A DNA stretch of 24,886 nt from the IMG/VR virus record IMGVR_UViG_3300031454_000246, positions 1 to 24,886 of that record. The stretch is one strand, 5' to 3'. This DNA comes from a virus (taxonomy: Duplodnaviria > Caudoviricetes). The stretch's first letter is position 1. Each line of letters begins with the position of its first letter. Made by a program: the position numbers and the translations under genes. The notes beneath the pieces were generated by a model. That model did no database searches and had not been told where the DNA came from. It saw nothing but the letters and a program-made list of their open reading frames with translations. This document shows, one piece after another, positions 1 to 24,886 of the stretch.

Positions 1-210
1 CTACACGGCGTGGGGTGACTGGGGGAGTGTTTCGACAGCGTGTACCGGGGACGCATCCGGTCCCGCCACGAGCACGTTGAGGGTCTTGCAACGCGGTCGT
101 TCGCACAGCACCTCGATCGTGCCCACGGTGACGGCGTGGCGCAGCAGCAGACGCTTGCAGCGCCGACAGCGCCACTCGCGCAACCCCGGTGTCGGCAAGC
201 TATCGTCCAT
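1..210 (-). CDS. Com-like zinc-ribbon protein (69 aa)
   Basis: REWRCRRCKRLL...IEVLCERPRCKTLN matches the two-knuckle pattern of Mu Com-family Zn ribbons; the start overlaps the tape measure stop. Confidence 0.75.
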   Translation of the reverse strand: MDDSLPTPGLREWRCRRCKRLLLRHAVTVGTIEVLCERPRCKTLNVLVAGPDASPVHAVETLPQSPHAV

Positions 211-9791: not shown

Positions 9792-9807
9792 CGGGTTCCC
9801 TCCTTGG

Positions 9808-10212
9808 CTATACGGGCAACAGGCTCGGTGCCTTCGCCGCCTCGAAACTGATCGCGATCCTTGACCGCTGGCTCTCGTCCTCGCCGAGCGGGACGGGCGG
9901 GCCGAGCGGGGTGATCCGGTGGTAGTGGGTGCCGTTGACGACGCGCTCCCTGACCGCCCCTAACGTCCGCGCGCACCGCTCGATGCGGAGGCGCGCGGCG
10001 GCGTAGTCGGGATCGCGGCACTCGATCTGACAACGCGGCCATTCCTCGGTGGGGTCGGTGCCGCCGTACAGATAGTCGGGGGCGCTGCCGCCGTACTCGC
10101 GGATCGCCAGGGCGGCGTCGGGGGAGTCCGGTAGCCGCGCCAGGAAGATCGTCTCCCCGATCGTGCCGAGTCCCGCCTCGACCAGCAGCGCGGCCACGTC
10201 ATCGAGGACCAC
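9808..10212 (-). CDS. Tail terminator / 'minor capsid protein' family
   Basis: IFLARLPDSPD.AL.I.EYGG...P..QI..R..DY...P..LG.DE..R; position after the gp10-like gene. Confidence 0.75.
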   Translation of the reverse strand: MVLDDVAALLVEAGLGTIGETIFLARLPDSPDAALAIREYGGSAPDYLYGGTDPTEEWPRCQIECRDPDYAAARLRIERCARTLGAVRERVVNGTHYHRITPLGPPVPLGEDESQRSRIAISFEAAKAPSLLPV

Positions 10213-10214
10213 GA

Positions 10215-10613
10215 TCAGCCCCCGATCTCGCGCGCCACGCGCGCCCCGACCCGCTCGCCCAGCCCCTTGGCACCCTCGACAAAAGGGACCTCGGCGAACT
10301 TGGCCTGGCGTCCGGGCATGTGCCGCACGCTCAGGTCTTCGTGTACTTTTTCCGCGTAGTCCGCCGTGGCCGCATCGCCATAGCTGATCGCGACCGAGAC
10401 GCTGTTACCGCTGACCTCCGGATTGTGGAGTTCGCCGCTCTTCTGGAGGGCGGTGGTATCCACAGGGACCAGGTCCTGCGAGCGATCGAAGACCGGCGCG
10501 GCCTCGGCGTGCAGCGCCCGACCGATCGCGGGGAGGAGTTGGGCGCGCGTGGCCCGCAGTCCGCGCAGCGCCTCGGTGAGTCCGGTGATCTGGATGGTGT
10601 TCCCGGTCGCCAT
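10215..10613 (-). CDS. HK97 gp10-like neck/tail completion protein
   Basis: ITGL..., SQDLVPVDT..L..S, YA..VHE and QAKF.E.P motifs. Confidence 0.8.
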   Translation of the reverse strand: MATGNTIQITGLTEALRGLRATRAQLLPAIGRALHAEAAPVFDRSQDLVPVDTTALQKSGELHNPEVSGNSVSVAISYGDAATADYAEKVHEDLSVRHMPGRQAKFAEVPFVEGAKGLGERVGARVAREIGG

Positions 10614-10625
10614 CGCGCGCCTCCG

Positions 10626-10853
10626 CTACTTCGCTTCAGCGAAGTCGATGTAGTACTCCTTGCCCAGTTCGAGTTTTCCAACCGCATCCGGGTTGCTGAT
10701 CGTCATCTTCAACTCGCCATTCGGACTCGCCTTCCAGAAAGCGTGATTCTCGCTCTCGGGATCGGGCGAGTAGACCGGATTCATCGTGATCGTCTCGCCC
10801 TCGAACTGGTAATTGCGGAGGATGCTGGTAACGGTGAATTTCGCGCGCAGCAT
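10626..10853 (-). CDS. Small hypothetical phage protein (75 aa)
   Basis: RAKF.V...EN..FWKASP.G...I.NP...G.EYYIDF; AAGGAG SD; lower GC than its neighbours. Confidence 0.8.
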   Translation of the reverse strand: MLRAKFTVTSILRNYQFEGETITMNPVYSPDPESENHAFWKASPNGELKMTISNPDAVGKLELGKEYYIDFAEAK

Positions 10854-10862
10854 GTTCGCTCC

Positions 10863-11237
10863 TTACAGATACAAGATTGTTTCGTGCGTGCCGCTTGCGC
10901 CCGGCACGGTGGCGATGGCGACGATGCCGGGGGAAGTGCCATCGGGGAGGGTCAGCCTGTCCTCCGTGCCGATCGTCGGCCCGCCCGCGAGCGTTACCAT
11001 CGTCGTGCTGGCCCGCTGATCGCCGCTCGCCGTCCTGACCAGTTGGTTCTTCCCCTCGACCCGCGCTGGATAGGTCGCCGGTGCCCCGTAGGTCGGTTTG
11101 CCGTAGCTGTCGCGGATGATGCTGCCATCGGTGCGGCGCGCGACGGGGCGAATCGTCACGGTCTGCCCCAGCCGCGCGGTCAACTCGGCTTCCCGCGCGG
11201 CGATTGCCGGGGCGAGCCAGTTGCTCAGTACGGGCAT
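10863..11237 (-). CDS. Head closure/stopper-like protein
   Basis: TVTI...DSYG.P.Y....YPARVE...DRLTLPDG; GAGG SD; position after the adaptor. Confidence 0.7.
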   Translation of the reverse strand: MPVLSNWLAPAIAAREAELTARLGQTVTIRPVARRTDGSIIRDSYGKPTYGAPATYPARVEGKNQLVRTASGDQRASTTMVTLAGGPTIGTEDRLTLPDGTSPGIVAIATVPGASGTHETILYL

Positions 11238-11584
11238 GTCAACCTCGACACATCCGCCGGTGACAATCGCGCCGGTTCGCCAGCCACCATCCCGAGCATC
11301 GCCACCTGCTGTGCGCCGCCCGCCAGCTCCGCCGCGACCAGCCCGTAGAGCGACTTCAGGTGATCGAAAACCTGTTGCTTGTCCTCGCGGTGCTGCCCGG
11401 TCGTGTAGGCGTTCAGGCGTGCGGCCTGCGTCAGCAGTTGCCACAGCCCGCGCAGGAGCGCACCCTGGTAGTCGCCATCCTCACGCGCCAGCAGATTGGT
11501 CAGCTCAGGATCCGGGAATGCGGGCGGCGTGCCGACATCGCCCAGGTCCTGCCGCAGGTCGGCGATCGAGAGGGTGTAGGCCAC
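11225..11584 (-). CDS. Head-tail adaptor/connector protein
   Basis: LR..LGD.....F.D.EL..LL N-terminal motif; position after the capsid gene. Confidence 0.7.
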   Translation of the reverse strand: MAYTLSIADLRQDLGDVGTPPAFPDPELTNLLAREDGDYQGALLRGLWQLLTQAARLNAYTTGQHREDKQQVFDHLKSLYGLVAAELAGGAQQVAMLGMVAGEPARLSPADVSRLTCPY

Positions 11585-11594
11585 CGCGCGCCCC

Positions 11595-11954
11595 CTACTC
11601 GACCACGATCAGGCGGCCGCAGATGCAGGGGATCGTGACCCCCGGCCCGAGCCGATCGGCGGGCCATACCGCGTTGCAGCCCGCGCAGGTGACGGTCTTC
11701 GGCGCGTCGCGCTTCCCGGCGAGCGCCACGGTCAACTGGGCGGGCTCCGTGCTACCCGGCGTCATCACGCCCGGCGCGGTGGCGTTGGTGACGGCTGCCG
11801 GGTCCGCCAGACCCGGATCGACCGTCACTCCGCCCGCGCCCTGCGCTTGCGCGGCGAGCGCGTCGGCGAGTCGTGCCGACTCGGCCTCCTGCGCCACTTT
11901 CGCCGCCGCCTCGGCCTTCTGCGCGGCCAGTTCCGCCGCTGTCTTCGCTGCCAT
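11595..11954 (-). CDS. Hypothetical Ala-rich protein with a C-terminal Zn-ribbon
   Basis: GGAGG SD; CAGC...CICG at the C-terminus. Confidence 0.7.
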   Translation of the reverse strand: MAAKTAAELAAQKAEAAAKVAQEAESARLADALAAQAQGAGGVTVDPGLADPAAVTNATAPGVMTPGSTEPAQLTVALAGKRDAPKTVTCAGCNAVWPADRLGPGVTIPCICGRLIVVE

Positions 11955-12007
11955 GTCCGCCTCCGTGGTTATCGTCTACCTGTCATCGCGCCCATGTGCG
12001 CCCAGTA

Positions 12008-13039
12008 TTAGGACGCCGGGAGGGTGATCCGCTCCGCCGTGGCCGCGACGTCGGCGAGGAACCCGTGCAGCCCGCGCCCGACGATCTGCTGCGCGATCAG
12101 GCGACTCAGGTCGGCGTCGCCCTGCGCGAACGCGAGATCCATCTTCTCTAGGTGGATCAGGCCGGTCCCGGCTCGCACGCCGTAGCAGGTCTTCGCCGCG
12201 ACGCCCGGATAGCTGAAGCTCTTGGTCACGTTGCCATAATTGAGTTGGGTGGACCAGCCGTCGTACTCGATGATCGTGAAATCGTCGACGCTCGCGAGCG
12301 GATTGAGGTTCGCCCCCGTCCGGTAGGCCAGCGCGTCGCGGATGTCGGCGGTGTCCTGGCTGTTGCAGAGCAGATAGTTCCAGGCGCGCGACTTCGGCAC
12401 GCTCGCCGCGTCCACGGCCATCTTGGCGTGCCGCTGCGCCGCCCGCAGCGTGTTGCGGATCCGCTCCTGGTAGGTCACCCCGGCGGTGGCGTCGGCGGCG
12501 GTGATGTTGGCCGCGCCGTAGGCGAACGTCAGCAGCGGGCCGAGTCCCTTGTGGTTGAGCATGGCATTCCACGCCCGGCCGAACTCGAGGTTCGCATCCT
12601 CGATCTGACTGAGGTAGTTGAAGTCGATCATCCGCTGGGTGTATTGGATCCCCGCGGCGGCTTCCTTGATCGGGATATTCCCCTTCGCCCCTTTGGCCAG
12701 GGTGCCGAAGTGGATCTCGCCGCCCTCCTGATGATCGAAGAACATGATCCCCCACTTCGGGTTCGCGATGTTCGTCGGCACCAGCTCGGGGAAGTTGGGG
12801 TCGCGGCGGATCGTGTAGAGCGGGTCGAAGAGGGTGGGGTTGTCAGCCCGGCCCTCGCTGACATCGATCTCGACCTTGTTGGCGACGAAGTCCGCGGCGG
12901 TGATGTCGCTCGACGTGACGAGCTCCTGCACCGTCGAGACCGGCCACTCGGCGTGCTCGATCGGTCGTCGCGTCCCCGCCAGCACGGCCGCGCGCCGCTC
13001 CGCCAGGAGCACGTCGCGGGAGATGACCCGGATTGGCAT
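12008..13039 (-). CDS. Major capsid protein (343 aa)
   Basis: Size and position after protease and decoration genes; EGGEIHFG; AGGAAGG SD before MPIRVIS. Confidence 0.8.
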   Translation of the reverse strand: MPIRVISRDVLLAERRAAVLAGTRRPIEHAEWPVSTVQELVTSSDITAADFVANKVEIDVSEGRADNPTLFDPLYTIRRDPNFPELVPTNIANPKWGIMFFDHQEGGEIHFGTLAKGAKGNIPIKEAAAGIQYTQRMIDFNYLSQIEDANLEFGRAWNAMLNHKGLGPLLTFAYGAANITAADATAGVTYQERIRNTLRAAQRHAKMAVDAASVPKSRAWNYLLCNSQDTADIRDALAYRTGANLNPLASVDDFTIIEYDGWSTQLNYGNVTKSFSYPGVAAKTCYGVRAGTGLIHLEKMDLAFAQGDADLSRLIAQQIVGRGLHGFLADVAATAERITLPAS

Positions 13040-13088
13040 GCGTCTGTCCTTCCTGCGCTCGTGCGCTCCCGTGGTGCGGCGTCGCCGC

Positions 13089-13424
13089 CTAGCTGATGTT
13101 GAGGATCCGCGCGCCGACGATCCCGGCGGCATCGCGGATTTTCTCGACTTTGGCGAACGCCCGGTTCCCCGCCGTCGCATCCGCCGGGCCGACCAGCGCG
13201 CCCGCCGTGGTGATCTGGATCACGTCGCCGCGCGCCGCGCCGACCCCCGCCGGGGTGGCGAAGTAGTGCAAGTAGGTCGGATCGACCTCCAGTGCCACCA
13301 GCGCGCCGGTCGCCGCGTCCGTGACGTAGACCCCGTTCCACCCGTCGATCCGCGCCGGGGTGCCGCGCACCACCGCCGCGGGGGCGGTCACGTCGATCGC
13401 CTTGCCGTCCGAGTATCGTGCCAT
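13089..13424 (-). CDS. Head decoration / capsid cement protein (DUF2190-like)
   Basis: SDGKAIDVTAPA.V..G...G..V.L.V; 111 aa; between scaffold and capsid genes. Confidence 0.7.
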   Translation of the reverse strand: MARYSDGKAIDVTAPAAVVRGTPARIDGWNGVYVTDAATGALVALEVDPTYLHYFATPAGVGAARGDVIQITTAGALVGPADATAGNRAFAKVEKIRDAAGIVGARILNIS

Positions 13425-13463
13425 CGCGCGTCCCTCCGTGTTGCGCCCGTGCTGTCGCCGGGC

Positions 13464-14012
13464 CTAGTACTCGCGCGGCGTTCGCGCGAACTTGCTCTCG
13501 CCCGTGCCGTGGCGGGCGGTCAGGGGGTCGGCGCTGCGGGTCACCATCGTCGGCTTCCCGCCGGTCGGCGCGGCCTTGACCAGGGTGGCGACCATCTCGG
13601 TCACCGTCTCGTCGCCGAGCGTCGCGGTCAGCGCGCGGTCGGCCTCGGCGATCGTCCGCTCGCGCATCTCCGCGACGACCAGGCGGCGCACCGTGGCGCG
13701 GGCCTTCGTCGCGGATGCGGCCGGCGCGTCCTTGGCGACCCGCTCGGCGAGCTGCGCGTCGAGGTGGCTGTCCACCGCCTGGCGGGCGGCCGTCTCGGCA
13801 GCCTCGCGTTGCGCGGTGGCCATCTCGGTCACGGTGGTGACGACCTTCGCGACCGGGGCATCCTCAGCCAGTCCCAGCGCCTCGCGCACCGGGGCGAGCT
13901 GGGCGTCGACCGCGGTGCGGCGCTCGCTCTCGATGTGCTCGCGCACCGCCTGGGGGAGCTGGGCCATCTCGGAGACGGTCAGGGTCTGGATGATCTCGCT
14001 GCGGTTGGTCAT
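13464..14012 (-). CDS. Nested in-frame scaffold protein (182 aa)
   Basis: Strong internal SD GAGGGAGG (14017-14024) just before the ATG at 14012 (MTNRSE). Confidence 0.55.
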   Translation of the reverse strand: MTNRSEIIQTLTVSEMAQLPQAVREHIESERRTAVDAQLAPVREALGLAEDAPVAKVVTTVTEMATAQREAAETAARQAVDSHLDAQLAERVAKDAPAASATKARATVRRLVVAEMRERTIAEADRALTATLGDETVTEMVATLVKAAPTGGKPTMVTRSADPLTARHGTGESKFARTPREY

Positions 14013-14774
14013 GCTGCCTCCCTCGCTGTAACGTTCGGACGAACTCTGTACGGCGACGACGAGCGGTTCGTGCCCCGCCTGCGCCGGATCATCGGCGGTG
14101 CGACCATTCGCCGTGACGGTGATGCTGACGGACGCGCCCGGCTCGGCGGACTGCATCTCGCGGCGCAACTGCCCGGCGATCGTCTGGGCGAGCTTGTCGG
14201 TCTGGGCGGCGGTCATCTCCGCCGAGAGGGCGAAGCCGCCCCCGAACTCCATGCCCGCGCGGCTGGCGGGGGCGAAGTCGATGCTCTCCAGGTTGCCGCC
14301 GGTCTGCACGCGCATCGCGCCGGTCGCCGCGTCGTGGATCTGCTGATAGCGCCCGTAGATCGACGTCGCCACCTTATGCCCGGAGGCCTTCGCGCGGCGC
14401 AGGAAGTCGCGGGTGTCGCGGGCGTAGGGCGGGATATAACCCTTGCCGTAGGCGGTGTCACCCTCCACGGTCGCGCCGAGCCAGAGGACCTCGGGGCGAT
14501 CGTAGCGGGTGGCGCGCTCGCCCTCGGTGATGTGGCCGAGGATGCCGCCCGGTCGGTCGCGGTTCACCTGCGCGGCGATCTCGGCGACCACGGCCGCGTC
14601 GTAGTAGCGCCCGTTCCGGCTCTTGCCAACCTTCGCAATCGGCAGGGTGACGAAGAGCGGGTTGTCGTCGCCGTCGGTCAGCGCGGCCTGGTCGATGCCC
14701 GGCGCGAATGGCACGGCGGGCAGATTCGGCGCGGCGAGTTCGGCGATGATGTAGTCGCGCAACGCATCCGGCAT
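13464..14774 (-). CDS. Prohead protease-scaffold protein (436 aa)
   Basis: SRNGRYY, LGH, TSIYG and ESIDFAP..RAG resemble phage prohead protease folds; helical C-terminal half. Confidence 0.75.
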   Translation of the reverse strand: MPDALRDYIIAELAAPNLPAVPFAPGIDQAALTDGDDNPLFVTLPIAKVGKSRNGRYYDAAVVAEIAAQVNRDRPGGILGHITEGERATRYDRPEVLWLGATVEGDTAYGKGYIPPYARDTRDFLRRAKASGHKVATSIYGRYQQIHDAATGAMRVQTGGNLESIDFAPASRAGMEFGGGFALSAEMTAAQTDKLAQTIAGQLRREMQSAEPGASVSITVTANGRTADDPAQAGHEPLVVAVQSSSERYSEGGSMTNRSEIIQTLTVSEMAQLPQAVREHIESERRTAVDAQLAPVREALGLAEDAPVAKVVTTVTEMATAQREAAETAARQAVDSHLDAQLAERVAKDAPAASATKARATVRRLVVAEMRERTIAEADRALTATLGDETVTEMVATLVKAAPTGGKPTMVTRSADPLTARHGTGESKFARTPREY

Positions 14775-14793
14775 ACCCGCTCCCGACTCCCGA

Positions 14794-14846
14794 CAAACGC
14801 AAAGAGGCCCACGGTGGGGAGTCGTATGACTCCGCCATCGTGGGCC
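14794..14846 (-). terminator. Leader hairpin with T-rich tail (attenuator-like) before the capsid operon
   Basis: GGCCCACGATGGCGGAGTC-ATAC-GACTCCCCACCGTGGGCC followed by TCTTTGCGTTTG. Confidence 0.65.
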
Positions 14847-14876
14847 GTGCAAGCCCGTTCTTTGATTATGGCAACA

Positions 14877-14905
14877 ATACTAACGTTCCAGTGGCACGCT
14901 GTCAA
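14877..14905 (-). promoter_or_regulatory. Sigma70/SigA-type promoter for the capsid operon
   Basis: TTGACA-N17-TAGTAT; the -10 overlaps the Zn-ribbon gene stop codon. Confidence 0.7.
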
Positions 14906-15101
14906 GCACGACGGTTTTGCGCCCGCACTTGTCGCACTGTACCCGCACAGGCAGGTAGGCATCGACGCCACGCCCCTTGTGGCGCAGGTGAAGGCAACCG
15001 TTCGCCACGACGCCGAGCTGCACCCCGCACCGGCAAACGATCTTGCGTGCTTCGGGACCGGGCGCGGGCGGCGGCAGCGGCGATGCGATCACGGCAACCA
15101 T
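14880..15101 (-). CDS. Com-like zinc-ribbon protein (73 aa)
   Basis: IVCRCG..LG...VQCDKCGR; GAGGAAGGGG SD. Confidence 0.7.
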   Translation of the reverse strand: MVAVIASPLPPPAPGPEARKIVCRCGVQLGVVANGCLHLRHKGRGVDAYLPVRVQCDKCGRKTVVLDSVPLER

Positions 15102-15198
15102 CACCCCTTCCTCGCACACAGTACAGCAGTTTTCATTGAGACTGACCCGAATTCTGCTTGAGGCAGGGTAATACGCTGCGAAGTAGATGGGCCAATGT

Positions 15199-15501
15199 TT
15201 ATGAAATTCGCTGTAACCGCACATCGCCGAGCCGATCGAGCGTGAAGTCCGCCGAGCCGTCCTTGCGCCGATAGGGGCGCGCCTCGGCGGTGAATGCGAT
15301 CCGCGCCCCCAGGTGCATCCTGACACACGCCAGGTCCTCGCCGAACGGCACCCACAGATGGGCATCAACCCACGCGCCGCCCGTCCACGTCACGTCGCGC
15401 AGCAGCAGTGTCAGCTGCCCACACTCGTCATCGCCGAGGCGCGCGGCCACAGCGCGGAATTGGTGACGGTGGCCGACGAGCGGGGCGAGCAGATCGCGCA
15501 T
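15199..15501 (-). CDS. Hypothetical protein (possible OB-fold)
   Basis: GGAGG SD; T.LL.DV...HLW...G..I.F.A....Y pattern. Confidence 0.65.
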   Translation of the reverse strand: MRDLLAPLVGHRHQFRAVAARLGDDECGQLTLLLRDVTWTGGAWVDAHLWVPFGEDLACVRMHLGARIAFTAEARPYRRKDGSADFTLDRLGDVRLQRIS

Positions 15502-15505
15502 CGGC

Positions 15506-15916
15506 TCATGCCTCCGGTGGCAGCGGTAAGAATGGCGCGACAACGCAGGCCAGCGCATCGACCGTCAGCTCGACCTCATAGGTGAACCGATCATCGATCA
15601 ACTGCCACTGGTTGGTGTTGTAATGCAAGATGAGGGCTTGGTGTTGCACGTCAATACCGCGCAGGTAGAGATGCGCCAATTCGTGGACCAAATGCAAACG
15701 CTGGCGCGATGGTGGGGATTCAAGGAAATAGTCGGAAAGCCGGACGAGCGCACGCCAATCGTGCTGGTTGTAGCGCACCTGCGCGCTTGCATCTTCGTTA
15801 TCGGGCAGAACATCCTCGACCGTGATCACCCAGTGCTGTAATCGGAGCGCGGGCAATAACGCCGGCAGGTACGCCCGCATCCGCTCTAGCCCCGCCTTGC
15901 GCTGCTCGGTGTCCAT
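15506..15916 (-). CDS. Zincin-like metallopeptidase (HExxH)
   Basis: LVHELAHL with a downstream E (EVE); 136 aa. Confidence 0.7.
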   Translation of the reverse strand: MDTEQRKAGLERMRAYLPALLPALRLQHWVITVEDVLPDNEDASAQVRYNQHDWRALVRLSDYFLESPPSRQRLHLVHELAHLYLRGIDVQHQALILHYNTNQWQLIDDRFTYEVELTVDALACVVAPFLPLPPEA

Positions 15917-15917
15917 G

Positions 15918-16166
15918 CTAGGCCCCCTGTTCTTTATAGCGGGCGATCTTCTCTTGCCAGTCGGGGAAACCCATCCACTGCAACACCAGCTCATTGAGGG
16001 CGACATCGCAGGCAAGGCACAGCGGTCGGTACAAATTTTGATCGGAGCAAATCTGCCACTGATGCTCGGCTGGTACGCCGCAACGAAAGCATGGCAGACG
16101 GCGAATACCAACTACCGTATAGGGCTTTCGTCGCCCATGCTTTCGTGTATCGTCCACGCCGCTCAC
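15918..16166 (-). CDS. Hypothetical Cys-rich (CxxC x2) protein
   Basis: PCFRCG...LCLACD; coupled to neighbouring genes; start at 16166 or 16157. Confidence 0.7.
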   Translation of the reverse strand: MSGVDDTRKHGRRKPYTVVGIRRLPCFRCGVPAEHQWQICSDQNLYRPLCLACDVALNELVLQWMGFPDWQEKIARYKEQGA

Positions 16167-16252
16167 ACCCCTCGCCGCGCACGCCAGTTCCGCAGCCACA
16201 GCCGCGCGCCGATTCGCGCCATGCGATAGCGGAAGCGCAGTCGCTCGGTCAT
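16163..16252 (-). CDS. Putative 29-aa basic peptide
   Basis: GAGGGG SD; MTERLRFRYRMARIGARLWLRNWRARRGV; GTGA overlap with the next gene. Confidence 0.4.
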   Translation of the reverse strand: MTERLRFRYRMARIGARLWLRNWRARRGV

Positions 16253-16260
16253 CTCGCCCC

Positions 16261-17079
16261 TCACAATCCGGTCAGCGCCGCGATCAATCCCGGCCCATCC
16301 ACGCCGCCCGGTTCCGGCGTCCCGTTGTTCGGCACGCGGCGCAGGTGGCAATTGCAGCCGACGTGGCCGGGGAACGAGGGCACCCGATCGGGTGCGTATG
16401 GCCCGCCCCGCGCGTTCTGGTCGCACACGTCGTGCTCGGCATGGCGAGACGATTTCTCCCACACCACGAGATCGCCCGCGCCGCGTGCCCTGGCGATCGT
16501 GGCGCTCCCATGGGCCAGGTTGACCTCATGCGCCGCGAGCCGCCGCGCCGACGAGAACGCCTGATCGCCGCGCACCGTGCGCCCCGCCGTGTCGGGCCGG
16601 ATGAAGCCCTTCAGTTCCCGTGCCAGCGCGTCCGGCCTCGTCCCGCGCGCCAGGCCCGCATCGAGCACGGCGGTCAGCCGCGCCCGCGCGTCCTCGCCCG
16701 CGAGCCAGATGCGGTCGGAGAGGGCGTGCCCGTGCGGGTCGCGCCAGGCGCGCGTCGAGGCGGACGCCGCGCCGGGCACGCCGCCGTCCGGGGCGGCAAC
16801 CTGCACCGCCGCGCGCGTCGAGGCGGCGAGGAGATGGGGGATCGTGCCCGCTGTGGCGTACCGCCGCTCGGCGTCCGCCGCGCTATCCCCGAAGAGGTGC
16901 GCGATGGTCGCATCCAGCCAGGTCACCAGCGCAGCACGCCCGGACGCGGTGATCGCGCCGCGCCGCCCCGCGCGCACGATGCGCTTCGCCAGGCCGTCCG
17001 CCACATCGACGAGCAGGGCCGCGAGCGCGACCGCGACCGCCTCCTGGAGCGCATCCCGCTGCGCGCGCTCATCGTCCAC
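16261..17079 (-). CDS. Minor head/morphogenesis protein (MuF / SPP1 gp7-like)
   Basis: LSDRIW, ARRLA.HE...AH, D.CD and P.H..C.C motifs; follows the portal. Confidence 0.85.
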   Translation of the reverse strand: MDDERAQRDALQEAVAVALAALLVDVADGLAKRIVRAGRRGAITASGRAALVTWLDATIAHLFGDSAADAERRYATAGTIPHLLAASTRAAVQVAAPDGGVPGAASASTRAWRDPHGHALSDRIWLAGEDARARLTAVLDAGLARGTRPDALARELKGFIRPDTAGRTVRGDQAFSSARRLAAHEVNLAHGSATIARARGAGDLVVWEKSSRHAEHDVCDQNARGGPYAPDRVPSFPGHVGCNCHLRRVPNNGTPEPGGVDGPGLIAALTGL

Positions 17080-18624
17080 TCAGGCCCCCTGTCCTAACTG
17101 CGCCCGCAGCGCCGCCGCCGGATCGACCGCCCCGGGTGGTGTGCCACCGACCGCGCCCGCCAGCGCACCATCCGCGCGTTGCTGATCGGTGCGCGCCTGC
17201 GCGACCTCCTGATCCACGTCGCCGACCGGCTCGCCGATCGCCGCGTTGCCGATCGCCAGCGTGGCGCGGTCGGAGAGCAAGCCCTCGTCGCGCAGGAACT
17301 GCACCCAGTCCCGCGTCAGCTGCCCCTCGCGGTCGGTGATGTCCGGCCAGGTGACGATCGTCGGCGCGTCGCCGACGATCTGCGAATCGCTCAGGCGGCG
17401 CTTGCGGAGCCAGATATCGGCCAGCTCGTGGAATCCGCCCGTCGCGACACTCCCCAGCAGCGGATCGGCGGGCGTGCCCTCGAACTGCCCCTGCTTCCCC
17501 TCGATGAATTTGAGGAACGGGGGCATCTGCTCGGAGACGCTGGCGTTGCTGCTGGCGACCGCCGTGCCCCAGATGAACTCGGGGATGCTCGAATGCTGCG
17601 CCAGCACCCAGAAGAGGATATTGAGGAGCGTCTGCGTGTCGGCCGCGAACGCCGCCGGGGAGGCCAGGCGGAACGACGCGCCCTCGCCGAGCACCTGCAC
17701 CTACTCCGGTGCCCAGTCCACGACCTTGCGGATCTGCCCGGTCGTCGGGTCCTCGACATCGCGCCCGAAGAGCGCCACAAACTGCTTCACATCCTTGATC
17801 CCCTCGAAGACCGGGGTGGGGCGGCCCATCAGCTTGTTCCCGGTGATCGCCCAGTTCAGCAGATCGTCGTAGCGGCGCAGCAAGGTCATCAGCGCGTAGA
17901 CCTCGGGCAGGCCGTAGACGTCGCCCGGCCCGCGTTCATTGGCCCAGTGGACCACGTCAATCCGCCCGATCGGGTTCGGCTCGTCGCTGATCAGCTGCCA
18001 GGCGGAGGGGATGTCGCGCGTCTTGGCGGAGCGCCGCTCCACGATACGCTGGGTGGCGGTGCGGGTGTCGCGGTAGAACCACTCGACCGCGACGCCGTTG
18101 GCGGCGCGCTCGACACGCCGCGCGTGGATCCGCACGGCCGCCGTGCCCCGCCCGTAGGGATCGAGTACCACCTCGACATCGGTCGGGGGGATGTGGACGA
18201 GCGCACCATCGTCATCGATGGCGATGTAGTGATCCCCGAGCTTCAGGCACTCGATCGCCCCCTGTAGGAAGTCGCGCTGATGGGCGGCCGTCCAGCGCGC
18301 GAGGAGCTGATTGGTATAGCTCGGCTCCTCGGTGACCGTGCCGTCCTCGGCCGTGGTGCGCGTGGGGGGCTCATCGATCCGGATCGCGACGCCGCGCCCG
18401 AGCGTGAAGTTGGCGATGTGCCGGACGATGCTCTTGACGAAGAGCCCGCCCATCTCGTAGCGGGGGAGGCGGCCGTGATAGAGGCGCTCATATGCCTCGT
18501 AGGGCAGGCGGCCGTAATCCGCCGCGACCGGCTGGATTGCGCTGGCGCGGCCCACCCCGTAGATCGTCTGCGACTCCGGTTTACCGCCAAGCATTTCGGC
18601 GACCTGCTGCTGTTCCGCGCTCAC
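17080..18624 (-). pseudogene. Portal protein interrupted by an in-frame TAG at 17701-17703
   Basis: Two abutting same-frame ORFs (307 + 206 aa) read ...DWAPE*VQVLGEG...; portal-like motifs GDHYI, VVHWANE....YG.PE and IPEFIWG; follows terL. Confidence 0.75.
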
Positions 18625-18625
18625 A

Positions 18626-20095
18626 TTACCCCCTGTACGCTTGCGGCGTCGTCGCGCCGAACGCGAATTGCTGGCTATCGCGCGGCTCGCGCAGATCCTG
18701 CCAGCTCCAGTAGCTCGCGTCGGTCAAGTCGAATGGCTTGGTGCGCGGGAACCGCCGCAGCGCGCGCTCCAGGGTTTCGTGCGTCCCCAGCACGTGCACG
18801 ATCTCGCCGCGCTCGTAATCGGGGAGCATCTGCGCGGCGCGATGCGCCTTCGGCCCGTGGCCTTGCCCGGCCTTCGCCGAGACAAACTGCGGGGCCTGAT
18901 CGCCGAGCAACCCCTCGGCGCGCAGCGAATCAACGGCGCGGGCGTAGACGCTATACCAGGTGTCGCCGCCCTGATCGGTCTCGACGCCAACCGTCAGGCT
19001 GCCCACCTCAACGGCCAGCAGAATAGCCCGGCGCAACACATCCTCGGGGCTCGTGCGTCCTTCCCACGAGCGCAGGCGGTAGATCGTGCCGTCCTCGGCC
19101 AGCCCATCGGCCTGGATACCATGCGAGTCGGACTGGTCGGTGTTGGTCACGGCGGGGTCGCACCAGACGGTTGAGCGGACGAGAATCGGCACCTCGTCGG
19201 CGCGGCAGTGGCGGAAGTCGAGATGGTCGAACATCCCGCCCGGCGCGTCCTGCACGTCATGCTGCGCCTCGGAGAGGAAGGCGGTCAGGCCCCATGCGTT
19301 GATCTGCTTCTCGCACGTCTCGACCGGTTGCCCCGCCCATGTCGCCGCACCGCCCACGATGACGTAGCGCGTGCGCCCGTCATCCTTCGTCACCTGATTC
19401 GTGGCGAGGTTGGTGATCGCCGGGTGCGGGCCGGAGACGATGCGCTCGGTGAGGAAGTCGGCGCGGCCGTCCGAGAGCTGGGCGAAGACACCATCGGGCA
19501 GGATCATGTTCTGCACCGCGAGCACCGCGAGGTCACCGGAACCTGCCGGCAGGAGCGCCCTGGTGATCGTCTTGATCTTCCGTGCGGTGGTCGCGGCGCT
19601 ATCGAGCCCGCCATCGATGTCGTCGAGCACCAGGATGTCGGGGCGCGCGTCTTCCAGCTTGACGCCGCGCGTGGCCGTGTCGAGGCCGATCGCATCGACC
19701 GTGAAGCCAGACGCCGTGCGGACGCGGTTGCGTCGCCAGCCTTTCGATGCGCCATGCTTTCCGACGAGACGATCGGCCATCGCGGGATAGACACCGGCCA
19801 GGGTGTCCGATTCGAGCAGCGCGGCGATCGTACCGACATGATCGTCTGCTTGCTCCTGCGTCTCGCAGACGTAGAGCGCGTACCTGCGCGACTCGCGCGC
19901 ACCGAGCATCACCGTGGCCAGCTCGGCGGTCGTGGATTTGGCCCCACCGCGCGGCCAAATGGCGACGAAGGGACGGGGGCGTTCGCCGGCCGTAATCGCC
20001 CAGGCCCAGGCCCACAGCGCGTGATGGCGGGCGGCGAAAGGTGCGGCGACATAGGACGGAAACAGCGCGCGAACCCACGCCTCATAATCCGTCTC
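18626..20095 (-). CDS. terL: Terminase large subunit (start uncertain)
   Basis: Walker A PRGGAKST, Walker B LVLDDID, RG motif, nuclease DPA and D..DA; frame open up to 20317. Confidence 0.9.
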   Translation of the reverse strand, partial: ETDYEAWVRALFPSYVAAPFAARHHALWAWAWAITAGERPRPFVAIWPRGGAKSTTAELATVMLGARESRRYALYVCETQEQADDHVGTIAALLESDTLAGVYPAMADRLVGKHGASKGWRRNRVRTASGFTVDAIGLDTATRGVKLEDARPDILVLDDIDGGLDSAATTARKIKTITRALLPAGSGDLAVLAVQNMILPDGVFAQLSDGRADFLTERIVSGPHPAITNLATNQVTKDDGRTRYVIVGGAATWAGQPVETCEKQINAWGLTAFLSEAQHDVQDAPGGMFDHLDFRHCRADEVPILVRSTVWCDPAVTNTDQSDSHGIQADGLAEDGTIYRLRSWEGRTSPEDVLRRAILLAVEVGSLTVGVETDQGGDTWYSVYARAVDSLRAEGLLGDQAPQFVSAKAGQGHGPKAHRAAQMLPDYERGEIVHVLGTHETLERALRRFPRTKPFDLTDASYWSWQDLREPRDSQQFAFGATTPQAYRG

Positions 20096-20507
20096 GATCG
20101 CCGCCGCGCGGGGCGACTTCGATGCTCCCTTCGAGGCGGTTGTCGTCTGGGGCTGGATCGGTTGGTCGGAAAGCAGCGAGAAGTCGGGTTGCCTTGTCAG
20201 CGGTGACCCCAAAGAAAACGGCAAGGTCGGCGGCGTTTTGCCGCGCGAGCCACTCGCTGTTGCGAGCAAACCGAAGTTGGGCGACCATCGTGTTGATGCT
20301 TTCCTCGACAAGACCATACACCAGCTCCCCGAGGTCCGTTTTTTGGGGTGGCACGGTGGGGGTGATAACTACCCCGCCGCTATCCCGCCAGCGCCTGATC
20401 GTCGTGCGGTCAACGCCGTACTTGCGCGCCGTAGCCCCGATGGACTCGCCCATCGCGAGGTCCGCGATCGCCGCCGCCTTCGTCTCGTCGCTGTGCGCCG
20501 TCGCCAC
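20082..20507 (-). CDS. terS: Terminase small subunit (HTH)
   Basis: HS.E.K...GESIGATARKYGV.R.TIRRW helix-turn-helix; directly upstream of terL. Confidence 0.75.
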   Translation of the reverse strand: MATAHSDETKAAAIADLAMGESIGATARKYGVDRTTIRRWRDSGGVVITPTVPPQKTDLGELVYGLVEESINTMVAQLRFARNSEWLARQNAADLAVFFGVTADKATRLLAAFRPTDPAPDDNRLEGSIEVAPRGGDRDGL

Positions 20508-20520
20508 TCACTGCCCGCCC

Positions 20521-20577
20521 CAAATAGCACAAGGCCGTCAGGATGCTCCCCACTTGCGGAGAACATTCCGGACGGCC
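20521..20577 (-). terminator. Leader hairpin with T-rich tail (attenuator-like) before the packaging operon
   Basis: GGCCGTC...GACGGCC long stem followed by TTGTGCTATTTG. Confidence 0.6.
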
Positions 20578-20606
20578 CAGGCACATCCCGTGAAGTTGAA
20601 TTATGG

Positions 20607-20846
20607 TCACGATTGTAGCGTACCGTGCGGCGGAGGCACAACCCCGCGCCCCGGCACCACGAACCACGGGGTGTCGAGACCGCACGCGCAGCGCAGCCAG
20701 ACGATCGCCCCGGTGACGATGAGGAAGGTCGCGTCGGAATCCGGGGTGAGGGTGACCGGGCCGCGCCGGTCGCGGGCGATGATGCCGAGCGTGCGCCCGC
20801 AGGTGCACAAAAAGGCGCGCGATGGAGTGTCGCTGTCGGCGTTCAT
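20607..20846 (-). CDS. Com-like zinc-ribbon protein (79 aa)
   Basis: FLCTCGRTLG...LRCACG; GAGGAGG SD. Confidence 0.7.
   Translation of the reverse strand: MNADSDTPSRAFLCTCGRTLGIIARDRRGPVTLTPDSDATFLIVTGAIVWLRCACGLDTPWFVVPGRGVVPPPHGTLQS
20612..20641 (-). promoter_or_regulatory. Candidate promoter for the packaging operon
   Basis: TTGTGC-N18-TACAAT inside the 3' end of the Zn-ribbon gene; 6 nt then CATAAT, the same geometry as at 14877. Confidence 0.55.
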
Positions 20847-20989
20847 AAGTTTACATCCTCCTCGCTGTGCACGAATGCCCCCTGCCCCGACCGTGCGGGC
20901 CAATGGCAACCGTGGACACACCGGCGCGGCCAATGTCAGGAAACGTCCGATGTTGACGATAGGCCGCGCGGGGGGCGGGCGGTCAGCGG

Positions 20990-21481
20990 TCAGCGGTCCT
21001 GATGCTGTGCGCGCATGACGCGCCCACGATACCCGCTACGTCGATGGATCGGCTCGGCGATCGGCTTGGTCGGCCCGCGCAATGACACCAACGCCACCAT
21101 CCGCTGTCGCAAAACCCGCAACAGGTCGCGGCGCATCTCCTCGCGATCATGACATGAGCGACAGAGGGTCAGGAGGTTCCCACGCTCGTTGGTACCGCCA
21201 GCGGTCAGCGCGAGCACATGGTGGATCGTCAAGCGCTCCCACGTGCCGCAACATTGGCAGCGATAGCCGTCGCGCTCGAAAATGGCGGTACGCTCCGCGC
21301 GCCGGAACCGCTTGCGGCTATGCTGGCCCCGCCCGCTACCGTGTCCGGGATTGCCCGCGCGTTCGTTACTCAGCCACTTTGTCATCGCCCTCATCGCGTG
21401 GTCCAGTCCGCCCGTATCTTGCGCCAGGAGGTCACGCGCCGCCCGCATATGGGCGGTCCACCCCGGCTGCTTCTTGCCCAT
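20990..21481 (-). CDS. HNH endonuclease
   Basis: IFERDGYRCQCCG...LTIHHV....GGTN...NLLTLCRSCH. Confidence 0.9.
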   Translation of the reverse strand: MGKKQPGWTAHMRAARDLLAQDTGGLDHAMRAMTKWLSNERAGNPGHGSGRGQHSRKRFRRAERTAIFERDGYRCQCCGTWERLTIHHVLALTAGGTNERGNLLTLCRSCHDREEMRRDLLRVLRQRMVALVSLRGPTKPIAEPIHRRSGYRGRVMRAQHQDR

Positions 21482-22012
21482 CTACGCCCCCGCTCCCGGC
21501 CCCGCCCCTGCCGTCCCCGCTGCGGGTCGCGCCGCCCCCGGTGGATCCGGCGCGGCGTGCTGGCGGGCGGCGAGTACCGCCAGGATCGCCGTGTCGAGGT
21601 CGTCGCGCCGTTCGCAGCACGCGGCCATATCCTCCGGCTCGAACTCGTCCACGCAGCGGCACAGCGCGTCCCAGGCGTAGCGCAGCCCGTCAGCCGCCGC
21701 CACGACCGCCCGGAGCGCGACGAGTTCGCGCGCCGCCTCAATCGGGGCGTGAATGACCCACTCGGTCAGCGCCTCTAATTCGTGATCGTAGTCGCACGCC
21801 GAGAGGAGTCCCGGTATCCGATCGTGTATGCTCCGTTTCGCCCCGCCCGCCGCCGTGTCGTCAATGACGCTGCCCGCCAGGAACGTGGGCAGCGTGGCCC
21901 AACTGTGCGCGCCTTGATGGCCCCGAGCATAGCCGCATGCCAAGGGCTCACCCTGCGCCCCCGAATAGCTGATCACCGCGCATAGGGTCAACGCGCTCGC
22001 CGTCATGCTCAT
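21482..22012 (-). CDS. Hypothetical protein
   Basis: GAGGAGG SD; ATGA overlap with the upstream gene; C...GH.G.H motif. Confidence 0.65.
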   Translation of the reverse strand: MSMTASALTLCAVISYSGAQGEPLACGYARGHQGAHSWATLPTFLAGSVIDDTAAGGAKRSIHDRIPGLLSACDYDHELEALTEWVIHAPIEAARELVALRAVVAAADGLRYAWDALCRCVDEFEPEDMAACCERRDDLDTAILAVLAARQHAAPDPPGAARPAAGTAGAGPGAGA

Positions 22013-22260
22013 CGGTCCTCCTCTGTGGTCGTGGCGCGGATAACCGCACGACAACGTTTACAGCCTGTCCAATCGCGCGGCTCGCCATCCTGCACGTTGA
22101 AATGCCAATATCCTGCGGTCGAGATGCCGCACGCCGTCCGAGCGTCCTTGCCGACATGGACGCCTTCCAAGTGCAGGACCACCCCAGGGTTACGGCGATC
22201 CTGCTCGGCGCTCCAGCAAAAACAGATCGTGTTGGGCGGAATCACTCTTGCTTGTGCCAT
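22009..22260 (-). CDS. Hypothetical Cys/His protein
   Basis: MAQARV...H...TACG...CKRC; translationally coupled. Confidence 0.65.
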   Translation of the reverse strand: MAQARVIPPNTICFCWSAEQDRRNPGVVLHLEGVHVGKDARTACGISTAGYWHFNVQDGEPRDWTGCKRCRAVIRATTTEEDR

Positions 22261-22292
22261 CGTCTCATCCTGCCCCCCTGGCGCGCCGCCGG

Positions 22293-22544
22293 TCAGCGCG
22301 GCGACGCGGCGTCGATCAATGCCTCGCGCCCTACCGTGATCAGGCAATCGGGGCGATGTGACGGCGGGCCATGCCGCTCTTCCGGGCCTTGTGCTTGGCA
22401 ATAAAAGCAGCGCCACTTGTCATTGTCAGCGTCATACCCCCATCCTGCCCACTCGTTCGCCGTCAACCCACGCAGCACGTTCCGCAAGAAGCCCCGCTCG
22501 TCCCGCAGCGCTTCAAGCAGTTTGCCGTAGCCAATGACCATCAT
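22293..22544 (-). CDS. Hypothetical protein
   Basis: GGGGAGGGG SD; CFYC...H..DC motif. Confidence 0.65.
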   Translation of the reverse strand: MMVIGYGKLLEALRDERGFLRNVLRGLTANEWAGWGYDADNDKWRCFYCQAQGPEERHGPPSHRPDCLITVGREALIDAASPR

Positions 22545-22588
22545 CGTCCCCCTCCCCTCTTGGCACGGCGCGCTGCCCCTTGTGGGTA

Positions 22589-22610
22589 CGGCCCGCGCCC
22601 GGTGCGCTAC
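22589..22610 (-). repeat. Stop-codon-associated 22-bp repeat, copy 1
   Basis: cggcccgcgcccggtgcgctac, identical to 23170-23191. Confidence 0.9.
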
Positions 22611-22795
22611 TCAGCGGTCTTACCCTCGGCCAGTGCTGCCTCGATGTCGCGCAGCGCCTGGTGCGCCGCGCGTGCCTGCAAGCGCAATACCTCGCGCAAC
22701 TGTTCGGGGGTCAGTGTGCGCCTCATCGGTTGGGCGACGGTGATCAACACCTCCTGTGCGTGCCGGAGTGCCGCAGACGCCCGCTGCTCATCCAT
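22607..22795 (-). CDS. Hypothetical protein (62 aa)
   Basis: GGAGGT SD; helical. Confidence 0.65.
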   Translation of the reverse strand: MDEQRASAALRHAQEVLITVAQPMRRTLTPEQLREVLRLQARAAHQALRDIEAALAEGKTAE

Positions 22796-22796
22796 G

Positions 22797-23147
22797 TCAG
22801 TTACCTCCCTTCGTCAGCGTCGTCACCGTGCGTCGCCCCGCCGTCCCGGTCCGCGCGATCGCCAGTTCTGGCAGCCAGGCATACCCCTGGCCCTCAATGT
22901 TCTCGCGGTAGCTAGCGGCGATCGCGCGCTCGAAAAACTGATCGTCGGACCGGATCAGCGCGTCGGTGCCCCGCTCATCTACGCCGATCAATGCCAGCAC
23001 CTGCACCAGCCGCGCATAGACGCGGCACACGCCAGCATATTCTGCCCACGCCCGATCCGACTGCTCCCCGACGGGGAGCGCGCTCACCAATGCCTAGAGC
23101 GTCGGCGGGTCGGACAGGTCGATCGGCTTCGCCTTTTTCTTTGCCAT
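22797..23147 (-). pseudogene. Hypothetical gene with an in-frame TAG at codon 18 (23094-23096)
   Basis: GGGAGGGGG SD, then MAKKKAKPIDLSDPPTL*ALVSALP..., continuing in frame into ORF 22797..23090. Confidence 0.6.
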
Positions 23148-23169
23148 CAGCCCCCTCCCCCCCTGCACC

Positions 23170-23191
23170 CGGCCCGCGCCCGGTGCGCTAC
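23170..23191 (-). repeat. Stop-codon-associated 22-bp repeat, copy 2
   Basis: Identical to 22589-22610. Confidence 0.9.
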
Positions 23192-23487
23192 GCATCCGGC
23201 TCATCGTCGCCATGTATCCGCGCCAAGGCATCCTCGGCGAGTTCACCATCGGGCAAAGCGGGCAATATCCCCACGAAGGCGCGTAACGGCATACGTTTCG
23301 CGGGCAGCGTCAACCGCACCGCCGCGAGCAAACCCTGTCCCATGTCGTCCGGCAGCCAGAGCGGATCGACCGCCACCTCCTTTTCGATCAGCGCCAACAA
23401 GCCCGCGCGCTGCTCCTGCGTCAACCAGCGCCCCTCGCTCTCCTCGGCGGTCGCCAATGCCCCGGCGATCAGCTGTGCGTGTGTCAT
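23188..23487 (-). CDS. Hypothetical protein (99 aa)
   Basis: GAGGGAG SD; stop lies inside the repeat. Confidence 0.65.
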   Translation of the reverse strand: MTHAQLIAGALATAEESEGRWLTQEQRAGLLALIEKEVAVDPLWLPDDMGQGLLAAVRLTLPAKRMPLRAFVGILPALPDGELAEDALARIHGDDEPDA

Positions 23488-23503
23488 CGTGTCTCCCTCT
23501 TCC

Positions 23504-23551
23504 CACCCGGCCCGCGCCTTTAGCCCGCTGCAAGTCGGGCCGGTGCGCTAC
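23504..23551 (-). repeat. Stop-codon-associated repeat, copy 3, split by a hairpin insert
   Basis: cacccggcccgcgcc + tttagcccgctgcaagtcgggc + cggtgcgctac. Confidence 0.8.
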
Positions 23552-23961
23552 TCGGCAGTCAATGTCGCCACGATCTCGGGAAAATCGCCCGGTCGCCAGA
23601 TGCGCCAATCGAGTCCCGCCGCGAGTAACTTCTGTCCCCACGCTGCTTGCGCTGGCCGCAGTCGCCCCTTCTCCGTTTTGCACTCGATGAACAGCGCCAC
23701 CGCGCCCCGAATCAGCACGAGATCAGGCCAGCCAGCATCGGAACCCCGGCTATCCAGCGTGTGATAACTGACCCACCGAAACCGTTCCGCCAAGCCCACC
23801 ACCAGCAGTTGGAAGTGCTCTTCGCTGATGCCCGCCTGGGGCGGCGCAGGAGCCACCAGCAACCTCGGCGGCGGCGTGTCGTCGGTGAGCGCGTCCAGGC
23901 GCACTTGCAGCGCCAGCGGGTAAGGGTAGCCCCGCGAACGCTTCGAGGATCGCTGGATCAT
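23548..23961 (-). CDS. VRR-NUC domain nuclease (PD-(D/E)xK; resolvase-like)
   Basis: GWPDLVL.....FIECK...GRL...Q..W. Confidence 0.9.
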   Translation of the reverse strand: MIQRSSKRSRGYPYPLALQVRLDALTDDTPPPRLLVAPAPPQAGISEEHFQLLVVGLAERFRWVSYHTLDSRGSDAGWPDLVLIRGAVALFIECKTEKGRLRPAQAAWGQKLLAAGLDWRIWRPGDFPEIVATLTAE

Positions 23962-24269
23962 TGCCCGGTCCTGATCCGCCGCAACTCGGCCACGAGGTTA
24001 TCGGTCGCCGGGCCAAGCGAAGCATGGGCGATCCCATTCTCGATGTCCTCAGCGCTAAGCCCGGCGCTCGGCCCGATACCGCGCAGCAGCATTGCCGCCC
24101 GCTGTTGGCTTGGCATGGCGACGTAGGAGCGCAGCAGCGTGGCGATCAGGCTCGACATGGCAAAGCAGTCGTCGGCGCTAACGTTATGCTCGGCTAAGAA
24201 GTCGCCGGAGAACGGATCCATCATCTCTTCGTATGCGCCCGCAAAAGCCTCGATCATGCCCTTCTTCAT
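23958..24269 (-). CDS. Hypothetical protein (103 aa)
   Basis: ATGA overlaps at both ends; AGGAAGG SD. Confidence 0.7.
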   Translation of the reverse strand: MKKGMIEAFAGAYEEMMDPFSGDFLAEHNVSADDCFAMSSLIATLLRSYVAMPSQQRAAMLLRGIGPSAGLSAEDIENGIAHASLGPATDNLVAELRRIRTGQ

Positions 24270-24886
24270 ACCATCACTTTCCTTCCTGCTGCTAGTCGCC
24301 CGCGCAGCCGCGTCGCCATCTGCGCGTCACGCGTCTCCGGGTCGGGGATCACCGCGTCGTCGAGCCCCAATGCCCGGAAGAAGGTGTCCTCGTCCGGGCA
24401 GGCCATCGGCGGCTCCGGCGCATTCCGCACCGTCAGCCGGTCCCGTTCCGGCCCCGCCTTGTAGCGGAACGGCCAGAGGTAGCCGTGCGCGTGCATCCAG
24501 CCGTTGGGGAGGCATCCGCCGTCGCGCCGCTGGGTCACCAACAGCTTGCTGAATTCGTAGTCACCCGTCCGAATGGCGACCGTGTTGCCGAAGTTGTCCG
24601 GCGAGTCCGCGATCCACAGTTCGAGTTCGACACCGCCCGCCTGGGGGAGCAGGAAGCGTTTCTGTCTGGGGCCATCGACGCGCCGGTCCTGCTGGGGGAG
24701 CTTCAGGTCGCCGTGCAAGACCAGGCGGGCCAGCAGGGTATCGAGGCGGCTTTTGCTGCTGCCCGGCTCGCCGAAGACCGGCGCAGCGGGCTTGGAGATA
24801 ACGGCCAACTCGATGTCCTTGATCTGCGCCTTCAGCCGCCTGACGCTGCCAACGACCATCAACTGGTGGCAGGCCGGGGCCAGGAG
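24266..24886 (-). CDS. PolX / DNA polymerase beta-like nucleotidyltransferase (5' end outside the window)
   Basis: LAPAC..L.V.GSVRR.K....DIE, RTG..EF and E...F..LGL...P..R; frame open to the window edge. Confidence 0.85.
   Translation of the reverse strand, partial: LLAPACHQLMVVGSVRRLKAQIKDIELAVISKPAAPVFGEPGSSKSRLDTLLARLVLHGDLKLPQQDRRVDGPRQKRFLLPQAGGVELELWIADSPDNFGNTVAIRTGDYEFSKLLVTQRRDGGCLPNGWMHAHGYLWPFRYKAGPERDRLTVRNAPEPPMACPDEDTFFRALGLDDAVIPDPETRDAQMATRLRGRLAAGRKVMV

Follow-up and report, generated by a model that had tools for sequence, protein, structure and literature searches.

The window analysed here is the whole 24.9-kb contig (24,886 nucleotides, 67.5% G+C) of a tailed phage, IMG/VR record IMGVR_UViG_3300031454_000246. 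On its minus strand, a small gene for a four-cysteine zinc ribbon, which we call ZnA, is followed by a structured RNA leader (leader A) and then by the gene for the head protease. Comparison with homologous loci supports the view that a ZnA gene with a promoter at its 3' end, followed by a leader able to take two folds, is a conserved unit placed before head genes. At A, promoter-like sequence occupies the end of the ribbon gene, the long stem of the leader (stem T) shows covariation, a small hairpin (H1) competes with the base of that stem, and ribbon and leader occur together. We explain this arrangement as a switch in which the ribbon would bind H1 and release the head operon, a reading to which we give a probability of roughly 0.45; action of the ribbon on the leader RNA, by whatever route, we hold to be on balance probable. 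The coordinates of the features are collected in Table 1.

ZnA and its leader were found together whether a search started from the protein or from the RNA (L numbers denote loci found by search, and G numbers related genomes). A peptide pattern for ZnA gave three matches in the viral search, two of them true (L139 and L140), and in metagenomes 120 loci of about 200 estimated, two of them true (L236, and L207, which is identical to the window); many of the false metagenome loci look HypA-like. All three non-self loci (L139, L140, and L236) have CGGG(C/U)-N5/6-CGGCC, a long stem, and GGCC. The leader pattern alone retrieved 20 loci, with ZnA upstream in five, three of which were new (L281, L288, and L293), and the leader is thus present in 6/6 other ZnA loci, which make up four lineages. 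Eleven of the remaining 15 loci with the leader pattern were scored, and these reached at most 25.6 bits against 59-85 bits for the training leaders. A second leader pattern, which included the Shine-Dalgarno sequence (SD), gave 30 loci and nothing beyond repeats of L288 and L293. Per translations and gene order read by eye, the gene 3' of the leader looks like one for an HK97-type prohead protease in L281, L288, and L293 and for a scaffold-like protein in L139 and L140; in L236, this gene is cut off. Since L139 is close to L140 and L288 to L293, the seven leaders stand for about five lineages. In another related genome, G009 (L327 2750-3460), an HNH gene, whose end carries a new promoter, lies between ZnA and the leader, and a short repeat of the leader's 5' box is found behind the old promoter.

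All seven leaders keep CGGG, CGGCC, and the closing GGCC. In stem T, 7/15 pairs show two-sided changes and 91% of cells are paired, with a covariation score of 0.41 as opposed to 0.14 when shuffled and at most 0.11 when slid, values that come from few, related sequences (seven) in an alignment fitted to the model. At A itself, stem T folds with z = -4.8 (300 dinucleotide shuffles). H1 is predicted at -7.4 to -8.1 kcal/mol in each of the seven ZnA leaders (p 0.027-0.06 in six, 0.19 in L236), and a hairpin of the H1 type has p 0.02-0.06 in eight of the ten leaders other than that at site B, described below. The GGG(C/U) box has two partners available to it, either the first bases of T, with which it makes H1, or, in six homologs, a (C/U)CCG located 12-13 nt after the formed stem. 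At A, the second partner has decayed to UUUG, which still offers three G-U pairs.

As for the promoter, the scan called three sites in 5000-24886, with 2.0 expected by chance, and a TTGACA -35 hexamer recurs at the matching place in L139, L140, L288, and L293. The strongest promoter at A is the near-consensus TTGACA-17-TAGTAT, with which CATAAT would fall at about +1, although TG-C-CATAAT is also readable as an extended -10. Either candidate start, read from the sequence, would leave the switch region intact.

What the two folds would control appears to differ among the homologs. In L281, L288, L293, and L236, an outer helix made of the CGGG box and an anti-SD covers the SD, and the formation of H1 cuts the predicted cost of opening the SD by 6-10 kcal/mol in these four of the seven leaders. 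At A, L139, and L140, the SD (GGGAG at 14780-14784 for the protease gene of the window) lies outside the switch and is not opened by H1; the predicted inhibitory cover over the start is also missing at B. L139 and L140 carry 5-6 U directly after the stem. According to these predicted folds, the same switch appears to be coupled to translation in certain lineages and, in others, probably to termination, and the homologs thus point to both outputs, antitermination and translational activation. At A, relief of termination is the likelier output because the alternative fold leaves the SD unhidden there.

The proposed switch would work as follows. Without ZnA, the long stem and the U-rich tail would stop RNA polymerase at A, as in L139 and L140, while in L281, L288, L293, and L236 the same OFF fold would hide the ribosome site instead. 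ZnA, when present, would bind the small 5' hairpin H1 as the nascent leader RNA emerges; with H1 bound, the long stem would not close at its base, beside the U tail, and polymerase would enter the head operon. Head and tail genes would then be expressed only once ZnA is present and, since ZnA is the last gene of the packaging module, the head genes would follow the packaging genes in time. Of these steps, we infer the binding of ZnA, the start site, and termination.

A number of results weigh against this explanation. The U tract at A is poor, with U at 4 of the first 8 positions behind the stem (4 also at B, and 1-6 in homologs), and the terminator scan scored neither hairpin A nor hairpin B as a terminator on the coding strand. 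H1 changes the SD opening cost at A by only -0.4 to 0.9 kcal/mol, so that neither output is clean there. Enforcing H1 in the full-length ZnA leaders costs 9-26 kcal/mol, and the switch must therefore be kinetic or protein-driven. The pairs of H1 are mostly invariant and hence show no real covariation, and its loops, the supposed binding site, vary (5-8 nt) and are invariant only at the final C. The leader model was built from the same seven leaders of about five lineages, and the linkage of ribbon and leader could reflect simple inheritance, the promoter being inside the ribbon gene. At B, the best helix over the stem base reaches -3.2 kcal/mol (p 0.60), and the covariance model of the seven A-type leaders misses B, with a best overlap of 6.9 bits at E 5.6 with filters off. 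In G001 and G004, one or two genes lie between the ribbon and the leader of the terminase module, and the leader behind the Com-family ribbon gene of G001 is open and ungated.

The alternative that survives best, although we consider it unlikely, is that the hairpin does no more than terminate transcription or stabilise the 5' end, the ribbon having another job, either as an autorepressor or as a DNA-binding regulator of the embedded promoter, for which P2 Ogr is the model. Gene and leader would then stay together since the promoter is in the gene. Loci lacking the ribbon fit this explanation, as a plain hairpin with a U tract precedes the same protease in the distant phages L129, L135, and L136 (15 inspected), and ZnA was not found in G004-G008; so do the absence of a gated leader behind the Com ortholog of G001 and the absence of an RNA-binding fold match for ZnA. 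What it leaves unexplained is the conserved competing hairpin and the SD-hiding helix in four homologs. The survival of the ribbon-leader pair across the HNH insertion in G009 and the Com-type loop beside a Com gene in G003 also speak against it, as does the -35 at A, which is already consensus, so that an activator is not needed.

We think it quite improbable that ZnA acts on the leader RNA to control translation only, site A included, in the manner of Com on mom. Occlusion of the SD and its relief are clear in 4/7 ZnA leaders, the U tract is not conserved (1-6 U in 8), and Com is a translational activator (PMC6483171), all of which would suit such a mode of action. At A, L139, and L140, however, the SD falls outside the switch and forming H1 does nothing to open it, and in L139 and L140 the 5-6 U come right after the stem. 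A mechanism of the lambda Q kind, in which the ribbon would bind promoter DNA, load onto polymerase paused at CATAAT, and read through the hairpin, matches a Q cassette in its order of regulator gene, promoter, -10-like hexamer, terminator, and late genes (PMC9388147 and PMC6606751), and CATAAT does lie 6 nt after the -10 at both A and B, with CATATT slightly further on in L139 and L140, but it is very unlikely, given that in L288, L293, L281, and the leaders of G001, G003, and G004 the hexamer is missing or short of its last T, that ZnA, at 73 aa, has no helix-turn-helix (HTH) body, and that a processive factor would need neither H1 nor SD occlusion.

The original prediction had described one leader layout at two sites, A before the protease and capsid genes and B before the gene for the terminase small subunit, each behind a Com-like ribbon gene with a promoter at its 3' end. 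The layout does occur exactly twice in the window, both times on the minus strand (14870-14794 for A, 20605-20521 for B), with long stems of 17 and 19 bp, and both upstream open reading frames (ORFs) encode four-cysteine ribbons that have homologs. The full pattern was found in none of 200 first-order Markov resamples, a control that overstates the likeness of A and B, the pattern having been drawn from these two sites. Taking A and B for one RNA, on the other hand, was not supported, as the model misses B, the similarity of the flanks beyond CATAAT, GGCC, and the stem is not significant (p 0.11), and the alternative hairpin at B is at chance level. The unit of ribbon, promoter, and leader accordingly holds for the A family before head genes, not for A and B as copies of one conserved RNA, and its parts fare likewise: the promoter and the pairing of box and stem are found at A (Table 1), at B the scan called no promoter and the candidate read by eye is weak, and upstream ZnA and stem covariation go with A-type leaders, whose covariance model leaves B outside. 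Among the boxes expected in orthologs, CGGG and GGCC are kept, but CATAAT, ACGGG, TGC, and TTTG are not kept in A orthologs. With L293 outside the set, the 11 leaders compared show ACGGG and CATAAT at A and B alone, the 5' TGC occurs at A, B, and L288 within the ZnA/B set, and TTTG, which at A is probably the decayed UUUG partner, is in no ZnA ortholog. A search for CATAAT..ACGGG..TGC, in which 120 loci of about 1300 estimated were read, gave one locus continuing with GGCC and none with the full layout; we regard the box-pattern matches elsewhere as chance. Rfam gave no match at A or B up to E 5, ribonucleic antiterminator (RAT) and S-adenosylmethionine (SAM)-type riboswitches included, and SAM-type and other riboswitches were rejected on this basis.

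We would like to note that site B likely gates the terminase module in an analogous way through a ribbon of its own, ZnB, although folding does not demonstrate a switch there. B and A have CGGG, GGCC, and UUUG at equal offset. Of 35 candidates for ZnB in viral contigs, none was confirmed, and leader B is thus without an ortholog for comparison. In G001 and G004, a long stem with a U-rich tail occupies the place that matches leader B, and B is the positional analogue of these terminase leaders and probably a gate of the same general kind. The ribbon at ZnB's position in G001 and G004, ZnC, is related to ZnA, and in these phages a third type of H1 precedes the terminase module (-11.1 and -9.6 kcal/mol).

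For ZnA, a search of 1.84 billion representatives gave 24 homologs. Three of its cysteines are invariant and the fourth nearly so in 25 aligned sequences, its core shows codon-position differences of 0.33/0.28/0.45 (seven sequences), which is mildly coding-like, and its predicted structure is all-beta with six strands (predicted local distance difference test score, 77). No curated family was found for it in Pfam, PHROG, or NCBIfam, Foldseek gave no match in the Protein Data Bank (PDB) at E 0.001, and a PDB sequence search retrieved generic ribbons only. ZnB has two homologs, with all four cysteines kept in 3/3 sequences. The description of both ribbons as Com-like stood only in a loose sense: neither ZnA nor ZnB matches PF10122 at E up to 1 in a Pfam profile search, while HHalign gives ZnA a weak likeness of 65% to a three-sequence Com alignment, spanning both knuckles. 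For the 25 ZnA-family members, PF10122 is not among the 25 families listed of 57, so at most one member could match it. By its sequence, then, ZnA is best taken as distantly Com-like and outside the Com Pfam family. HHalign further gives 94% for ZnA-ZnC, 80% over 23 columns for ZnC-ZnB, and 28% for ZnA-ZnB, and ZnA, ZnB, ZnC, and the Com ribbon look like one loose superfamily. Its only Com-family member in the window is a third ribbon, at 1-210, which the original prediction had not mentioned and which is the one that matches PF10122.

The third ribbon has an ortholog in G001 (69%), behind which come TTGACA-16-CATAAT and a small hairpin, and then a gene for a secreted-looking protein with an open SD. 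An SD-hiding leader was suspected 3' of this gene and rejected, with an SD opening cost of 0.6 kcal/mol.

Further loci show regulators and leaders being exchanged around conserved genes. The head locus of G003 shares its protease and its U-rich tail with the window and has a Com-like ribbon (PF10122 E 0.005, below cut-off), and its leader contains a GGCC-CAUGA-GGCC hairpin with a C-AU-GA loop that fits the SELEX-derived motif of Com with one mismatch. The head locus of G004, which is without ZnA, has a small helical ORF, a different 5' leader, and a scaffold-like gene, and in both loci a long stem with a U-rich tail follows the respective regulator type. The U-rich tail of leader A is kept in L002, where the stem interior and the regulator differ, and in run X3 there is one contig in which protease and leader A tail are retained but stem and ZnA region differ. 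The covariance model of A-type leaders misses the leaders of G001, G003, and G004. A change of regulator type thus goes with a change of 5' leader type, as would be expected of cognate protein-RNA pairs and also of plain linkage. The cassette of G004 (L269 10836-11190) is a third type, standing before a scaffold-like gene: a 50-aa helical ORF carries the promoter and is followed by a structured leader that begins with AACCGAATA, a long stem, and a U tail. In L129 and L136, 5' words resembling the L269 leader seem to precede terminators.

A wider proposal, which we hold to be doubtful, is a three-step RNA relay in which ZnB, ZnA, and Com would each end a module, recognise their own hairpin, and open the next module. 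It is no less doubtful that such a relay would use antitermination in some lineages and SD unmasking in others, with ribbon-leader pairs that are orthogonal and form swappable cassettes. In G001, too, ribbons occupy these three positions, but the leader after its Com is open.

Table 1. Features of the ribbon genes, leaders, and adjoining genes in the window.
Feature	Position	Strand	Remarks
ZnA, 73-aa zinc ribbon, unnamed family	14880..15101	-	Pro-rich start, CxC...LG...RHxGR...LP...CxxC; likely regulator of leader A
Sigma70-type promoter A, TTGACA-17-TAGTAT	14877..14905	-	within last codons and stop of ZnA; 10/12
CATAAT, second -10-like hexamer with upstream TG	14865..14873	-	extended -10 or part of the initial transcript; last T lost in L288, L293, and the G001 terminase leader
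Small hairpin H1, GGGC box with base of long stem	14842..14856	-	predicted ON fold; -8.0 kcal/mol, p 0.027 against 300 shuffles
Long GGCC-closed stem T, 17 bp	14806..14846	-	predicted OFF fold; pairing, two-sided changes in homologs
U-rich tail of leader A, weak U tract	14794..14805	-	4 U in 8; UUUG can pair with CGGG box via G-U pairs
Head protease/scaffold gene	13464..14774	-	first gene 3' of leader A; phrog_3219 E 7.5e-22; phrog_328 head maturation protease E 1.5e-4
ZnB, 79-aa four-cysteine ribbon, divergent	20607..20846	-	occupies position of ZnC in G001 and G004
Promoter candidate B, weak, TTGTGC-18-TACAAT	20612..20641	-	last codons of ZnB; by eye, not called by scan
Leader B 5' part, CATAAT and CGGG box	20578..20605	-	no convincing hairpin over stem base
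Leader B long GGCC-closed stem, 19 bp, and U-rich tail	20521..20577	-	folding z -2.9 (300 dinucleotide shuffles)
HTH protein, likely terminase small subunit	20082..20507	-	first gene 3' of leader B; HTH_28 E 4.8e-8; phrog_3218 terS E 0.013; terL next
Third ribbon, Com-family, end of tail module	1..210	-	PF10122 E 5.7e-5, at cut-off; phrog_6417 and phrog_13819 gpCom; DNA 3' of gene beyond window

The minus-strand gene order is HNH, ZnB, terS-like HTH gene, terL, portal (two ORFs), head morphogenesis gene, three small ORFs, and ZnA, followed by protease, decoration, capsid, connectors, tail tube, chaperone, tape measure, and the Com-family ribbon. A stop at about 17701 divides the portal region (17080-18624, minus strand) into two ORFs, of which the 3' one is without a good start. 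A genome scan with the neck protein gave one weak match. A TnpB/IS605-type gene at 7305-8666, between tail tube and chaperone, opposes the late operon and has a weak HEARO match at 8527-8651. At 5752-5827 (plus strand), a weak int-alpA RNA match (26 bits against a gathering threshold of 35.8, E 0.13) lies directly 5' of an HNH gene that is inserted, with reversed orientation, between tail chaperone and tape measure. HNH genes are also found directly 3' of the G004 terminase leader (L269 4530-5125) and after terL of G001 (L266 7678-8352); HNH insertions cluster at module borders in this phage group. The tape measure (200-5716, minus strand) has glucosaminidase-like and M23 peptidase domains near its C terminus, which suggests a host with a thick peptidoglycan wall. 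One Atlas look-alike cluster, mostly Thermomicrobiota, provides a host lead only.

If the proposed switch of ZnA and leader A is correct, a sister family of 70-aa ribbons outside Pfam gates head-gene operons via a hairpin that drives termination or translation, and small 'hypothetical' zinc ribbons at phage module ends become candidate late-gene regulators. The ribbon-loop pairs (ZnA, ZnC, and Com types) would then offer a test of an RNA-recognition code and a source of compact orthogonal switches.

To our knowledge, Com of phage Mu has a single known target, mom. ZnA and leader A would work by analogy with Mu Com and mom without being a member of that system by profile or RNA motif. A small four-cysteine ribbon gene lies directly upstream of the leader, a short hairpin abuts an inhibitory stem, the leaders of four ZnA homologs are predicted to hide the SD, and G003 has a Com-like ribbon with a C..GA loop at the same locus. 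For comparison, PMC6483171 describes Com as a CCCC (four-cysteine) ribbon that binds a short hairpin adjoining an inhibitory structure, and PMC3299994 places Com homologs beside other DNA-modification genes. Unlike Com, ZnA and ZnB are without a PF10122 match, and the loops at A and B have neither GA nor the bipartite GAGNNCC motif (searched with at most one mismatch), which the G003 head leader does match. Also unlike Com, the targets are virion operons and not a DNA-modification gene, the promoter is at the end of the ribbon gene, and the likely output at A is termination.

In the RAT elements of BglG/SacY, a small hairpin stabilised by the protein overlaps the 5' arm of a terminator. Leader A resembles these in that its small hairpin overlaps the 5' arm of a terminator-like stem, and differs in having no CAT or PRD domain (Pfam), no RAT match (Rfam), and no sugar signal. 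The order of regulator gene, late promoter, -10-like hexamer after the start, terminator-like hairpin, and late genes is that of lambda Q/pR'/tR' (and of AlpA), and in lambda the pause element is at +1 to +6. In contrast with lambda Q, neither ZnA nor ZnB matches a Q family (Pfam, PHROG, NCBIfam), ZnA has 73 aa and no HTH, the second hexamer is not conserved, and the conserved RNA alternative points to action on RNA. In the literature searched, whose coverage leaves most subscription journals outside, there was no report of such a ribbon-leader system for virion genes. Structured RNAs directly upstream of head genes are nevertheless known from Rfam, as GP20-a (RF02991) and GP20-b (RF03003), and from the IMG/VR candidates of PMC10690425, which lists candidate RNAs before phage head and terminase genes; leader A may be among the 10,006 candidates in the supplements of that work.

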